Source: a virus (lineage: Duplodnaviria; Heunggongvirae; Uroviricota; Caudoviricetes). From it: a DNA stretch of 11,708 nt. The translations under genes and the position numbers were made by a program. Below the pieces are notes generated by a model, which saw only the letters and a list, made by a program, of their open reading frames with translations, did no database searches and was not told the DNA's origin. Positions 4,170 through 11,708 of the stretch are shown one piece after another. The stretch is from IMG/VR virus record IMGVR_UViG_2778261005_000027. One strand, 5' to 3'. The number at the start of each line of letters is the position of its first letter. The first letter of the stretch is position 1.

Positions 4170-4354
4170 AATTATTCTCCTTACTGGTTGTGTGAGAACT
4201 CCAGTATACCACCGAGCCTGAAGTGGTAAAAAGACAGGCGCACAACACGAAGGCGCATTTCCGGTATCCATAAAGAGTCGGTCTTGTCTGTTAAATTTAA
4301 ATGGTGGGAGTGCGCCTCCGGTTGTAAATAACGACATTGCTGTGTCTAGTCTTT

Positions 4355-4398
4355 GGCGGCATCAGTTCTACTCCGTAGCTGCCCTGCCGCCCCTTTTT
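4355..4398 (+). terminator. Plus-strand rho-independent terminator: GC-rich compound hairpin followed by a T5 tract
   Basis: Outer stem GGCGGCA (4355-4361) pairs with TGCCGCC (4385-4391). Inner stems are CAG/CTG and CTAC/GTAG with loop TCC. A T-tract follows at 4394-4398. On the minus strand the hairpin is followed by AAAG, so it acts in the plus direction only. Confidence 0.6.
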
Positions 4399-4581
4399 AA
4401 AGTGAATTTTGTGATGCGGTGAATGCGGCTAAGCGCACGCGGAACAGTTAAAAAGCTATTGTCCTTCGTAGCAGAGTTATGGGTGAAATATCCGGCGTTA
4501 ATTGTTAACTGGTTAACGTCACCTGGAGGCACCAGGCACCGCATCAACAAAGTTCACTTCAGTGATGAAAGGTGAGAGAAA

Positions 4582-5433
4582 ATGTTGAATGTAGCTATTG
4601 AAAACCAGAACGGGTGGAATTATAGTGCACCTGCACCTCATAAAGCGGGTGCCGGGCGTGGAAACCCGATGATGACTACTGCGCATAACCGCGCTCAGGC
4701 GGTTTTTTTATGCGTAATGCACAGCCACATTCAGATTATGGTGGGGCGTGCAGGGCAGCCGAAAGGCTGGCCGGTTTCGGTAGTCACCGGTATTTCCACC
4801 CCTGTACGTCTCACCACCCTTATGGTCGTGGAAAGCCTTGGTGGTGAGTTATTTAAACTGACTATCGAGGCTGCCATCATGGCTACTATCCCTACCCTTT
4901 CTCACCCTGACGTAACCATCGAAAATGGTCGTGCTGCCACTACGTCTGTTGCAGTTGCAGAGTTTTTCCGCAAGCTGCATAAAAACGTCATTCAAAAAAT
5001 TGAAGCTCTGGAATGTTCCTCAGAATTCACTGAGCTTAATTTTAAGCCAAGTGAATACACCGACTCAACCGGGCGCAAACTCCCAATGTACCAAATCACC
5101 AAAAACGGCTTCGTTTTCCTGGTGATGGGTTTCACTGGCAAAAAAGCCGCTGCATTCAAAGAGGCCTACATCGCTGAGTTCGACCGCATGGAAGCAGAGC
5201 TACGCCAGAATAATACCACTCCCACAAACAAAATCATTCCGGGCGATGGGCGCACTCTGGTTGTTCGCTTCGACAAATTCGGCAACGTCGAATTCACTGA
5301 AACCGTTCCTGATGGCGCTCTCGTCTGTACCCTGGACACTTTCCGCCTTTATCTGGAGAAACAGGGCTGGACTCTTGTAAACCGAAGCGCAATTAAAAAT
5401 ATGACCGTCGAGCAGTTGCTGAGTATTAAATAG
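4582..5433 (+). CDS. Rha-family phage regulatory protein (longest ORF 283 aa; Rha-like domain begins near an alternative ATG at 4879, giving 184 aa)
   Basis: The segment TTSVAVAEFFRKLHKNVIQKIEAL ... YQITKNGFVFLVMGFTGKKAAAFKEAYIAEFDRME resembles the conserved Rha (Phage_pRha) N-terminal domain as I remember it. Both the ATG at 4582 (GGTGAG Shine-Dalgarno) and the ATG at 4879 (GAGG 8 nt upstream) are plausible starts. Confidence 0.6.
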   Translation: MLNVAIENQNGWNYSAPAPHKAGAGRGNPMMTTAHNRAQAVFLCVMHSHIQIMVGRAGQPKGWPVSVVTGISTPVRLTTLMVVESLGGELFKLTIEAAIMATIPTLSHPDVTIENGRAATTSVAVAEFFRKLHKNVIQKIEALECSSEFTELNFKPSEYTDSTGRKLPMYQITKNGFVFLVMGFTGKKAAAFKEAYIAEFDRMEAELRQNNTTPTNKIIPGDGRTLVVRFDKFGNVEFTETVPDGALVCTLDTFRLYLEKQGWTLVNRSAIKNMTVEQLLSIK

Positions 5434-6321: not shown

Positions 6322-8922
6322 ATGAGCACAAAACCACTCTTCCTGTTACGGAAAGCGAAAAAATCATCCGGTGAACCTGACGTCGTCCTGTGGGCAAGCA
6401 ACGATTTTGAATCGACCTGTGCCACTCTGGACTACCTGATCGTTAAGTCAGGTAAAAAACTGAGCAGCTATTTTAAAGCTGTTGCCACGAATTTTCCTGT
6501 CGTTAATGACCTGCCCGCTGAAGGTGAGATCGATTTTACCTGGAGTGAACGCTATCAACTCAGCAAAGACTCCATGACATGGGAACTAAAACCGGGAGCA
6601 GCACCAGACAACGCTCACTATCAAAGCAATACCAACGTCAACGGCGAAGACATGACTGAGATTGAGGAGAATATGCTACTCCCAATTTCTGGCCAGGAAC
6701 TGCCCATTCGTTGGCTTGCTCAACACGGCAGCGAAAAACCGGTAACGCACGTTTCACGCGACGGACTCCAGGCATTACACATTGCTCGGGCTGAAGAACT
6801 ACCGGCTGTTACTGCCCTGGCTGTTTCCCACAAAACCAGCCTGCTCGACCCGCTGGAAATTCGCGAACTCCACAAACTGGTTCGTGACACTGACAAAGTT
6901 TTCCCTAATCCTGGTAATTCAAACCTGGGACTGATAACTGCTTTTTTCGAAGCATACCTGAACGCTGACTACACCGATCGAGGACTGCTGACAAAAGAGT
7001 GGATGAAGGGTAATCGTGTTTCACACATCACTCGCACGGCTTCCGGTGCTAATGCTGGCGGCGGAAACCTCACCGATCGCGGCGAAGGTTTCGTACACGA
7101 TCTGACGTCACTGGCGCGCGACGTAGCCACTGGCGTACTGGCCCGTTCAATGGATCTGGACATCTATAACCTTCATCCGGCACACGCTAAACGCATTGAG
7201 GAAATTATCGCTGAAAATAAACCGCCCTTTTCTGTTTTCCGCGACAAATTCATCACCATGCCTGGCGGGCTGGATTATTCCCGCGCCATCGTGGTTGCGT
7301 CCGTAAAAGAAGCACCAATTGGGATCGAGGTCATCCCCGCGCACGTCACTGAATATCTGAACAAAGTACTGACTGAAACCGATCATGCCAACCCTGATCC
7401 GGAAATCGTGGATATTGCCTGCGGTCGCTCCTCTGCCCCAATGCCGCAGCGAGTAACAGAAGAAGGAAAACAGGATGATGAAGAAAAACCGCAACCATCT
7501 GGAACAACGGCAGTTGAACAGGGAGAGGCTGAAACAATGGAACCGGACGCAACTGAACATCATCAGGACACGCAGCCGCTGGATGCTCAGTCACAGGTAA
7601 ATTCTATTGATGCGAAATATCAGGAACTGCGGGCAGAACTCCATGAAGCCCGGAAAAACATTCCATCAAAAGATCCTGTCGATGCCGATAAATTGCTTGC
7701 TGCATCACGTGGTGAATTTGTTGACGGAATTAGCGACCCGAACGATCCGAAATGGGTAAAGGGGATCCAGACTCGCGATTGTGTGTACCAGAACCAGCCA
7801 GAAACGGAAAAAACCAGCCCGGATATGAATCAACCTGAGCCAGTAGTGCAACAGGAACCGGAAATAGCCTGCAATGCCTGCGGCCAGACTGGCGGGGATA
7901 ACTGCCCTGACTGTGGTGCGGTGATGGGCGACGCAACATACCAGGAAACATTCGATGAAGAGAGTCAGGTTGAAGCTAAGGAAAATGATCCGGAGGAAAT
8001 GGAAGGCGCTGAACATCCGCACAATGAGAATGCTGGCAGCGATCCGCATCGCGATTGCAGTGATGAAACTGGCGAAGTCGCAGATCCCGTAATCGTAGAA
8101 GACATAGAGCCAGGTATTTATTACGGAATTTCGAATGAGAATTACCACGCGGGTCCCGGTGTCAGTAAGTCTCAGCTCGATGACATTGCTGATACTCCGG
8201 CACTATATTTGTGGCGTAAAAATGCCCCCGTTGACACCACAAAGACAAAAACGCTCGATTTAGGAACCGCTTTCCACTGCCGGGTACTTGAACCGGAAGA
8301 ATTCAGTAACCGCTTTATCGTAGCACCTGAATTTAACCGCCGTACAAACGCCGGAAAAGAAGAAGAGAAAGCGTTTCTGATGGAATGCGCAAGCACAGGA
8401 AAAACAGTTATCACTGCGGAAGAAGGCCGGAAAATTGAACTCATGTATCAAAGCGTTATGGCTTTGCCGCTGGGGCAATGGCTTGTTGAAAGCGCCGGAC
8501 ACGCTGAATCATCAATTTACTGGGAAGATCCTGAAACAGGAATTTTGTGTCGGTGCCGTCCGGACAAAATTATCCCTGAATTTCACTGGATCATGGACGT
8601 GAAAACTACGGCGGATATTCAACGATTCAAAACCGCTTATTACGACTACCGCTATCACGTTCAGGATGCATTCTACAGTGACGGTTATGAAGCACAGTTT
8701 GGAGTGCAGCCAACTTTCGTTTTTCTGGTTGCCAGCACAACTATTGAATGCGGACGTTATCCGGTTGAAATTTTCATGATGGGCGAAGAAGCAAAACTGG
8801 CAGGTCAACAGGAATATCACCGCAATCTGCGAACCCTGTCTGACTGCCTGAATACCGATGAATGGCCAGCTATTAAGACATTATCACTGCCCCGCTGGGC
8901 TAAGGAATATGCAAATGACTAA
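6322..8922 (+). CDS. recE: Exodeoxyribonuclease VIII (RecE), 866 aa
   Basis: The 866-aa length matches K-12 RecE. The C-terminal nuclease region ([26 protein letters not shown] ... DVKTTADIQ) is recognisable. The central part is acidic and low-complexity and carries a CNACG...CPDCG motif. recE overlaps recT by 8 bp. Confidence 0.92.
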
Positions 8923-9724
8923 GCAACCACCAATCGCAAAAGCCGATCTGCAAAAAACTCAGGGAAACCGTGCACCAGCAGCAGTTAAAAATAGCGACGT
9001 GATTAGTTTTATTAACCAGCCATCAATGAAAGAGCAACTGGCAGCAGCTCTTCCACGCCATATGACGGCTGAACGTATGATCCGTATCGCCACCACAGAA
9101 ATTCGTAAAGTTCCGGCGTTAGGAAACTGTGACACTATGAGTTTTGTCAGTGCGATCGTACAGTGTTCACAGCTCGGACTTGAGCCAGGTAGCGCCCTCG
9201 GTCATGCATATTTACTGCCTTTTGGTAATAAAAACGAAAAGAGCGGTAAAAAGAACGTTCAGCTAATCATTGGCTATCGCGGCATGATTGATCTGGCTCG
9301 CCGTTCTGGTCAAATCGCCAGCCTGTCAGCCCGTGTTGTCCGTGAAGGTGACGAGTTTAGCTTCGAATTTGGCCTTGATGAAAAGTTAATACACCGCCCG
9401 GGAGAAAACGAAGATGCACCAGTGACCCACGTCTATGCTGTCGCAAGACTGAAAGACGGAGGGACTCAGTTTGAAGTTATGACGCGCAAACAGATTGAAC
9501 TGGTGCGCAGCCAGAGTAAGGCAGGTAATAACGGGCCGTGGGTAACTCACTGGGAAGAAATGGCAAAAAAAACGGCTATTCGTCGCCTGTTTAAATACCT
9601 GCCTGTCTCAATTGAAATCCAGCGTGCAGTATCAATGGATGAAAAGGAACCACTGACAATCGATCCGGCAGACTCCTCTGTATTAACCGGGGAATACAGT
9701 GTAATCGATAATTCAGAAGAATAA
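8915..9724 (+). CDS. recT: Recombination and annealing protein RecT (single-strand annealing), 269 aa
   Basis: The ATG at 8915 follows an AAGGAA Shine-Dalgarno and gives [35 protein letters not shown]..., 269 aa, matching K-12 RecT. The ORF-track start at 8858 is an upstream in-frame extension inside recE. Confidence 0.92.
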
Positions 9725-9768
9725 TTCAGCCAGGCGGTGTAATGCACCGCCAACGTGAGATAGTTTTT

Positions 9769-9975
9769 ATGACAAAAACTTTGAGATATGACGATGTTAA
9801 ACCATGTCCGTTTTGTGGTTGTCCATCAGTAACGGTGAAAGACATTTCATGATATTACCGGGCAAAATGCAACGGATGCGAATCCCGAACTGGCTATGGT
9901 GGAAGTGAAAAAGAAGCGCTCGAAAGATGGGATAAACGAACCACTGAAAATATTAATGGAGGCGTTCATGTATAA
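9769..9975 (+). pseudogene. ralR: ralR (lar, restriction-alleviation / type I toxin) reading frame interrupted by an in-frame TGA at 9850-9852
   Basis: The frame reads MTKTLRYDDVKPCPFCGCPSVTVKDIS-stop-YYRAKCNGCESRTGYGGSEKEALERWDKRTTENINGGVHV-stop. The stop separates the two CxxC halves of a zinc ribbon. Counting from the TTG at 9781 gives 64 codons, the length I recall for K-12 RalR, where I believe a Gly codon (GGA) occupies this position. Confidence 0.55.
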
Positions 9976-10156
9976 AATTACCGCTACAATTGAAAAGGAA
10001 GGTGGCACTCCTACTAACTGGACAAGATATTCAAAATCTAAACTAACGAAATCAGAATGCGAAAAAATGCTCTCAGGTAAAAAAGAAGCAGGCGTTTCCA
10101 GAGAGCAGAAAGTAAAACTGATAAATTTTAATTGCGAGAAACTTCAGTCCTCGTGA
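9968..10156 (+). CDS. ydaC: Small Rac prophage protein (ydaC-like), 62 aa from ATG 9968 (in-frame alternative starts at 9956 and 9896)
   Basis: A GGAGG Shine-Dalgarno lies 5 nt before the ATG at 9968. The gene sits between ralR and xisR as in K-12. I cannot match the exact length to K-12 YdaC. Confidence 0.65.
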   Translation: MYKITATIEKEGGTPTNWTRYSKSKLTKSECEKMLSGKKEAGVSREQKVKLINFNCEKLQSS

Positions 10157-10255
10157 ATTGCATTGTATTCAAATTAAAACTTCATAGCTGATTATTAATA
10201 ATCAACATCAGGCGTCAATTTCAGTCTAACATTGGCGCCTGCCAGAGGTGATGCG

Positions 10256-10471
10256 ATGGCACAAGTAATCTTTAATGAAGAGTGGATGGTTGAATACGGC
10301 CTGATGCTTCGCACTGGTCTGGGGGCCAGACAAATTGAAGCATACCGCCAGAACTGTTGGGTGGAGGGCTTCCACTTCAAACGAATATCTCCTTTAGGTA
10401 AGCCAGACAGCAAACGAGGGATTATCTGGTACAACTATCCAAAGATAAATCAGTTTATCAAAGACTCATGA
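10256..10471 (+). CDS. xisR: Prophage excisionase, 71 aa ([71 protein letters not shown])
   Basis: A GAGGTG Shine-Dalgarno lies 5 nt before the ATG at 10256. The 71-aa length matches K-12 XisR (YdaQ). Its stop is immediately followed by the intR start. The ORF-track start at 10232 is an upstream extension. Confidence 0.8.
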
Positions 10472-10472
10472 T

Positions 10473-11708
10473 ATGTCTAAATTACCAACAGGTGTCGAGA
10501 TTAGAGGTAGAAACATTCGCATCTGGTTCATGTTTCGAGGAAAACGATGTCGGGAAACATTAAAAGGCTGGGAGATTACAAACAGTAATATTAAAAAGGC
10601 CGGAAATTTAAGAGCGCTGATAGTTCATGAAATAAACTCCGGTGAATTTGAGTATTTAAGACGTTTTCCCCAGTCCAGCACTGGGGCAAAAATGGTGACA
10701 ACGAGAGTCATAAAAACGTTCGGGGAGCTTTGTGATATCTGGACAAAAATTAAAGAGACAGAGTTAACAACAAACACAATGAAGAAAACGAAATCACAAT
10801 TAAAAACACTCAGAATAATAATTTGTGAAAGTACCCCGATATCATATATTCGTTATAGCGATATCTTAAACTACCGGAATGAACTGCTGCATGGAGAAAC
10901 GCTTTACCTGGATAATCCAAGATCCAACAAAAAAGGAAGAACCGTGCGCACAGTTGATAACTATATCGCCCTGCTCTGTTCGCTGTTACGTTTTGCGTAT
11001 CAGTCGGGATTTATATCAACCAAACCATTTGAAGGAGTAAAAAAATTACAGCGAAACAGAATAAAGCCTGACCCGTTATCTAAAACAGAATTCAATGCAT
11101 TAATGGAAAGTGAAAAAGGACAGAGCCAAAACTTGTGGAAATTTGCCGTTTACTCCGGGCTTCGTCACGGGGAACTGGCAGCTCTGGCGTGGGAGGATGT
11201 GGATTTCGAGAAGGGAACTGTGAATGTCAGAAGAAACCTGACGATACTGGATATGTTCGGTCCCCCAAAAACAAATGCCGGGATCCGGACAGTAACATTA
11301 CTGCAGCCTGCTCTTGAAGCACTGAAGGAGCAATACAAACTGACCGGGCATCATCGCAAAAGCGAAATCACCTTTTATCATCGGGAGTACGGCAGAACCG
11401 AAAAGCAAAAACTGCATTTTGTTTTCATGCCCAGGGTGTGTAACGGAAAACAGAAACCTTATTACTCGGTAAGCAGTTTGGGGGCAAGGTGGAATGCAGC
11501 AGTAAAACGTGCTGGTATTCGCCGCCGTAATCCGTACCATACGCGGCATACTTTTGCCTGCTGGCTGTTGACGGCAGGAGCGAACCCGGCATTTATAGCC
11601 AGCCAGATGGGGCATGAAACTGCGCAGATGGTGTATGAAATTTACGGTATGTGGATTGATGATATGAACGACGAACAGGTAGCCATGTTGAATGCGCGGC
11701 TATCGTAG
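10473..11708 (+). CDS. intR: Tyrosine-family site-specific integrase, 411 aa
   Basis: The 411-aa length matches K-12 IntR. The C-terminal catalytic region carries an H-x-x-R motif (NPYHTRHTFACWLL) and a tyrosine near the end (MVYEIYGMW). The window ends at its stop codon. Confidence 0.9.
   Translation: MSKLPTGVEIRGRNIRIWFMFRGKRCRETLKGWEITNSNIKKAGNLRALIVHEINSGEFEYLRRFPQSSTGAKMVTTRVIKTFGELCDIWTKIKETELTTNTMKKTKSQLKTLRIIICESTPISYIRYSDILNYRNELLHGETLYLDNPRSNKKGRTVRTVDNYIALLCSLLRFAYQSGFISTKPFEGVKKLQRNRIKPDPLSKTEFNALMESEKGQSQNLWKFAVYSGLRHGELAALAWEDVDFEKGTVNVRRNLTILDMFGPPKTNAGIRTVTLLQPALEALKEQYKLTGHHRKSEITFYHREYGRTEKQKLHFVFMPRVCNGKQKPYYSVSSLGARWNAAVKRAGIRRRNPYHTRHTFACWLLTAGANPAFIASQMGHETAQMVYEIYGMWIDDMNDEQVAMLNARLS

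Follow-up and report, generated by a model that had tools for sequence, protein, structure and literature searches.

The ralR gene of the Rac-like prophage analysed here is, in our judgement with high confidence, a pseudogene that was inactivated by a nonsense change from GGA to TGA. The gene occupies positions 9769 to 9975 on the plus strand of the window, by which we mean the whole stretch of 11,708 nt that was analysed. When the gene was translated, the frame read MTKTLRYDDVKPCPFCGCPSVTVKDIS up to a premature TGA at 9850-9852 and then continued in the same frame as YYRAKCNGCESRTGYGGSEKEALERWDKRTTENINGGVHV (YYRAKCNGC...GGVHV) until the natural stop codon, a TAA at 9973-9975. The first CxxC pair (CPFC, then GC, in the motif CPFCGC) is located upstream of the premature TGA, and the second pair (CNGC) downstream of it. 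The translation thus confirmed the first-pass annotation, which had described two CxxC halves of a zinc ribbon that are split by this TGA within one frame. In all TGA-carrying records whose annotation was inspected, among them records that are 100% identical to the window, RefSeq lists ralR as a pseudogene with an 'internal stop'. A literature search for a published ralR pseudogene returned nothing specific.

Translation of Lar may start at two codons. The RefSeq annotation uses the TTG at 9781, which is homologous to the ATG of the K-12 gene, and the first-pass annotation had used the ATG at 9769, the sole in-frame ATG start in this lineage of ralR alleles. A literature search on the start-codon usage of Lar found nothing specific, and either coordinate is defensible. 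With the ATG at 9769, 27 residues are translated before the premature TGA, and with the TTG at 9781, 23 residues.

The family membership was tested with the premature stop read as glycine. The resulting protein scored 153.3 bits with the RalR equivalog model NF007260 of NCBIfam (cut-off 113), 50.8 bits with the Pfam model PF14354 (Lar_restr_allev, cut-off 28.6) and 51 bits with the Lar family model TIGR03655 (cut-off 39.6). It was 91% identical to the RalR of K-12. The truncated peptide, in contrast, fell below the cut-off of every family model that was run. It covered profile positions 1-23 of the 64 in NF007260 with 50 bits (cut-off 113) and positions 2-18 of the 58 in PF14354 with 23.9 bits (cut-off 28.6). 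The ralR of the window has no continuous ORF of some 64 aa with both CxxC pairs; its translation ends at 23-27 residues. Since all testable features of the family were present except for the intact ORF, the gene is a pseudogene of the known RalR/Lar family and does not have the status of a working member. When the Protein Data Bank was searched with the sequence of the read-through protein, no solved relative was found; the only matches, weak ones to the chitin-binding protein CbpD (E 0.004-0.03), were taken as chance.

To trace the origin of the stop, we compared the codon at 9850-9852 with those of alleles that are annotated as intact. In K-12 MG1655 and in strain CH458, which is 99% identical over 501 nt, the aligned codon is GGA and encodes Gly24 in the K-12 numbering. 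The most informative allele was that of the E. coli strain SJ7 (NZ_CP044315.1), whose annotation gives an intact RalR of 64 aa (WP_096245389.1). Its 207 nt are identical to those of the window except for a G in place of the T at 9850, and its flanking genes and integration site are the same as those of the window prophage. Because the SJ7 allele differs at 9850 alone, the stop in the window is one G-to-T transversion that converted the glycine codon on an otherwise unchanged allele. The proposal of a GGA-to-TGA nonsense mutation was therefore borne out by all three intact alleles, and none of them, K-12 included, carried the TGA at this codon. The other ralR alleles that we inspected all encode the form of 64-68 aa, and intact versions of the gene are carried by about 1,880 other complete E. 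coli genomes and by a few Rac-like phages that have been sequenced.

A sequencing or assembly error, with a true GGA in the genome, had been offered as an alternative. The one-base difference from the intact SJ7 allele is of the kind that an error could make. However, a search of 5,426 complete E. coli genomes found the exact 45-mer with the TGA in 18, which were sequenced independently in several laboratories and countries, and the change is a substitution and not an indel in a homopolymer. In the segment from recT to intR, the compared carriers fell into two distinguishable haplotypes that are 10-11 SNPs apart, and the TGA is in both. In addition, the ralR pseudogene of OkiPb01680 carries a second change, from G to A at 9834. 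Two more Okinawa strains had one mismatch in the 207-nt search and yet matched the 45-mer, which excludes position 9834; this fits the same change at 9834. With the same TGA in 18 assemblies, on two haplotypes and in three genomes with an extra SNP in the pseudogene, the error can be dismissed for all practical purposes.

The carriers of the TGA came mostly from cattle, beef or human stool, and the records with inspected annotation were from the USA, Germany, Canada, Japan and Russia. The distribution fits one origin of the allele, which was then inherited or spread together with the prophage. The allele has persisted in strains of diverse kinds, most of them bovine or of the Shiga-toxin type. 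Neutral hitch-hiking with the prophage would account for this persistence, which is not a proof of selective neutrality. In the same set of genomes, a 501-nt query with ralR and the RalA/rcbA region matched 1,922 genomes and a query with ralR only matched 1,883. Only the rcbA/RalA part of the 501-nt query was matched by strain BS-01, and other independent events in which the toxin was lost and the antitoxin kept may exist.

RalR has been described as a non-specific DNase toxin of 64 aa that forms a type I toxin-antitoxin pair with the RNA RalA (Guo et al. 2014, PMC4041452). In K-12, RalA together with Hfq blocks the translation of RalR (PMC4041452). We searched the window for the antitoxin and found a full-length RalA gene of 179 nt at 9974-10152 on the minus strand. 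The match to the Rfam model RF02694 covered the model positions 1-179 with 218.2 bits (gathering score 170, E 1.3e-52). The RalA gene is convergent with ralR, lies directly downstream of it and is antisense to the DUF1187/rcbA (ydaC) ORF, as in the published map, where RalA is antisense to rcbA/ydaC and downstream of ralR (PMC4041452). The 16-nt site in the ralR mRNA that pairs with RalA, defined as a repeat in the same study, is AAGTGAAAAAGAAGCG at 9903-9918 on the plus strand, and the complementary segment of RalA, RNA UGCUUCUUUUUUACCU, is at 10075-10090 on the minus strand and matches the repeat in PMC4041452. The complementarity of the two RNAs is therefore present in the window, with the target site now downstream of the premature stop. 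The site ends in a G, where K-12 has an A, and this gives a G-U wobble; the same G is found in the intact alleles of CH458 and SJ7. A 207-nt ralR query found one place only in the strains 2571 and F6321, in a search that is blind to more divergent paralogues of the Lar family. With no second close copy of ralR in these two strains, RalA would be an orphan antitoxin there.

RalA differs from its K-12 counterpart at 2 of 179 nt. Both differences are located in the 5-bp stem of the terminator (9974-10010, minus strand), where they produce a C-A mismatch. In the minimum-energy fold, which has -30.3 kcal/mol compared with -35.5 kcal/mol for K-12, the predicted hairpin of the terminator is gone. Since CH458 with its intact ralR has the same variant, the altered terminator is a trait of the lineage. 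The divergence from K-12 is uneven in this region, with 18 of 199 nt (9.0%) changed in ralR (9769-9967) and 0 of 153 nt between 10000 and 10152. Either the sRNA/rcbA region is strongly constrained, or there is a boundary of recombination where ralR ends. The best promoter-like site of the region was TTGACG-16-AATAAT (10/12) at 10191-10218 on the minus strand, upstream of the 5' end of RalA at 10152. There are 39 nt from the end of its second hexamer to the mapped 5' end, and directly next to the mapped end only a weak TACAAT was seen. RalA might arise by processing of a longer transcript.

The first-pass annotation had pointed to the hairpin GGCGGTG-taatg-CACCGCC at 9733-9751 in the spacer between recT and ralR as a possible promoter or terminator element of RalA. 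The hairpin exists, has 8 bp, is stable and is identical in K-12. Its link to RalA was wrong, because Rfam and the published mapping place RalA at 9974-10152 on the minus strand. RalA is to be sought downstream of ralR and antisense to rcbA rather than in this spacer. A terminator scan of 9600-10300 called none, and the hairpin at 9733-9751 has no T-run on either strand. Just after it, an AU-rich hairpin (AGUUUUU-AUGAC-AAAAACU, 9762-9780) carries the ATG of 9769 in its loop. The 64 nt from 9722 to 9785 that contain both hairpins fold with -18.8 kcal/mol on the plus strand (z -3.2) and with -19.5 kcal/mol on the minus strand (z -4.35). The GC hairpin may be an element for mRNA processing or stability within the recET-ralR transcript, and the AU hairpin may affect the initiation of ralR translation.

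We then considered whether the TGA is leaky or recoded, by readthrough with near-cognate tRNA-Trp or by insertion of selenocysteine, so that a little full-length RalR is made and the toxin is attenuated but not dead. Among the stop codons of E. coli, UGA is the leakiest, the frame downstream of the TGA is open and the same as in the intact SJ7 allele, and the target site of RalA is kept. The unchanged downstream frame is, however, explained by a recent mutation, since the 18 alleles are almost identical and give no sign of purifying selection. The base after the TGA is a T, and UGA-U is among the more efficient contexts for UGA termination in E. coli according to work on tetranucleotide stop signals; RF2 is more active in natural E. 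coli isolates than in K-12. For selenocysteine, a SECIS-like hairpin 3' of the UGA was sought in the 64 nt from 9847, and none was found when the fold was compared with shuffled sequences: the segment 9847-9910 folds with -12.0 kcal/mol, and the mean of the shuffles was -12.08 kcal/mol (z 0.03). The intact alleles have a glycine at this codon, neither cysteine nor selenocysteine, which also argues against recoding, and RefSeq files the gene as a pseudogene. We regard a leaky or recoded stop as very improbable, and equally so the production of a low level of RalR with Trp24, which nothing supports.

Alternatively, the functional product could be shorter, either as an N-terminal peptide of 23-27 aa with a role of its own or as a C-terminal half that is translated separately. 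In principle, a small zinc-knuckle peptide can bind a partner, and nothing more specific spoke for this explanation. Between 9853 and 9975, no in-frame ATG, GTG or TTG was found, and an ATT at 9952 was the only near-start codon. Reinitiation after the stop was rejected on this ground, and for the same reason the C-terminal half is not made on its own. The N-terminal peptide has one CxxC pair only and scores under both family cut-offs, in a family where all the other alleles inspected encode the long form. A functional short product is thus extremely improbable, and the nonsense mutation remains the preferred explanation.

The prophage around the pseudogene was characterised with the annotation of the O157:H7 strain F6321 as the reference for the whole window. 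The whole window is 100% identical to the E. coli O157:H7 strains 2571 and F6321, whereas 2013C-3264 matches only about 83% of it in 4 pieces and has shifted left-hand coordinates. The F6321 prophage is lambdoid, Rac-like and integrated adjoining ttcA. Of this prophage, the window comprises the kilR-recE-recT-ralR-DUF1187-xisR-intR arm, the immunity region and some of the genes of the replication cluster. RefSeq annotates recE, recT (8915-9724, upstream of ralR), DUF1187, xisR (10256-10471) and intR (10473-11708) as intact, all of the mapped genes being on the plus strand, and the window ends with the stop codon of intR, where the prophage adjoins ttcA. The intact state of the neighbours had been noted before and was confirmed by this annotation. 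The DUF1187/rcbA (ydaC) ORF encodes 62 aa at 9968-10156 on the plus strand, is a RefSeq CDS and scored 132 bits with PF06688 and 138.7 bits with NF007283; its ATG at 9968 overlaps the end of ralR.

To the left of the window, the F6321 prophage continues with genes for lysis, the head and the tail. It also has three tRNA genes, the type III effector genes espK, espN and nleL, the hokD toxin gene and a gene for a toxin of the Doc family. Its defects are a frameshifted portal gene and remnants of IS2. The prophage is therefore large and partly defective, and it is distinct from a remnant of the K-12 style. It had been suggested that the loss of the toxin fits the domestication of a cryptic prophage. 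The suggestion fits only loosely, because the head, tail, lysis and effector genes are those of a large prophage.

Elsewhere in the window, several small RNAs were matched by Rfam on the plus strand. DicF (4341-4392), isrK (4633-4709) and the C4 antisense RNA (4734-4821) scored above the gathering scores, and STnc100 (4382-4565) was slightly under its gathering score. Both isrK and C4 lie within an annotated CDS of the Rha family at 4582-5433. Residues 14-109 of this CDS match Phage_ASH of Pfam, and the Rha domain begins at residue 120. The 5' third of the CDS may be an RNA leader instead of coding, or both.

What the premature stop does to the toxin can be judged from the K-12 protein. Changes at the RalR residues 14, 37, 39, 49, 51 and 52 reduce the toxicity, and purified RalR with the substitution K52Q does not cleave DNA (PMC4041452). 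Five of these six residues (37-52) are beyond the premature stop. Of the two CxxC knuckles in the four-cysteine Lar/RalR fold, the truncated product keeps the first only. The RalR toxin of the window is predicted to be null, and most likely is, because the second zinc knuckle and five of the six residues reported as needed are lost. The biochemical role of RalR as a DNase toxin rests on one study, and an earlier report described a restriction-alleviation protein (Lar). For the antitoxin, the consequence would be an orphan RNA, with RalA and its 16-nt target kept while the toxin is lost. Losing the toxin is harmless and losing the antitoxin alone is not, so a toxin-antitoxin pair is expected to decay in this direction. 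With respect to the downstream genes, ribosomes at the premature TGA halt 115 nt upstream of the ATG of DUF1187/rcbA. Speculatively, a translational coupling to DUF1187/rcbA, if there is any, would be lost, and a Rho-dependent polarity on xis and int in the same leftward operon is conceivable.

Since the RalR/RalA system is published and the TGA allele is already flagged in RefSeq, this is a known and ordinary pseudogene. Beyond the correct annotation it has little import, except as a clean natural example where the toxin was lost and the antitoxin RNA kept. SJ7, as the intact sister at a single step, offers a tidy isogenic comparison for the toxicity of RalR or the function of RalA in wild strains. 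It is also imaginable that the attenuation or loss of RalR was selected in the effector-carrying Rac-like prophages of cattle-associated E. coli of the Shiga-toxin type. A trace of readthrough might then keep a sub-toxic RalR(G24W) under the control of RalA, or RalA may have been kept for another target. We consider this scenario very doubtful and retain the loss of ralR by a simple nonsense mutation.

The known system that is closest to the window is the RalR/RalA pair of the Rac prophage in K-12. The order of the genes, recE-recT-ralR-rcbA/ydaC-xisR-intR adjoining ttcA, is the same in both, as are the relative position and strand of a full-length RalA and the 16-nt pairing region. In contrast to K-12, the toxin ORF of the window is cut at codon 24 by the TGA. 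The window also has a TTG where the K-12 ralR has its ATG, with an in-frame ATG four codons upstream, a G-U wobble in place of one A-U pair of the 16-nt target, a C-A mismatch in the terminator stem of RalA and an rcbA of 62 aa compared with 69 aa in K-12. The shorter rcbA ends at a TGA at 10154-10156 where K-12 has AGA, and the changed base is 2 nt upstream of the mapped 5' end of RalA, which is on the other strand. Because the differences in the start, the wobble, the terminator and the length of rcbA are common to CH458 with its intact ralR, they are traits of the lineage and not consequences of the stop. In the wider Lar family (PF14354, TIGR03655), the CxxC...CxxC pattern is shared by the family proteins and the read-through RalR, whereas the actual product of the window ends after the first CxxC.
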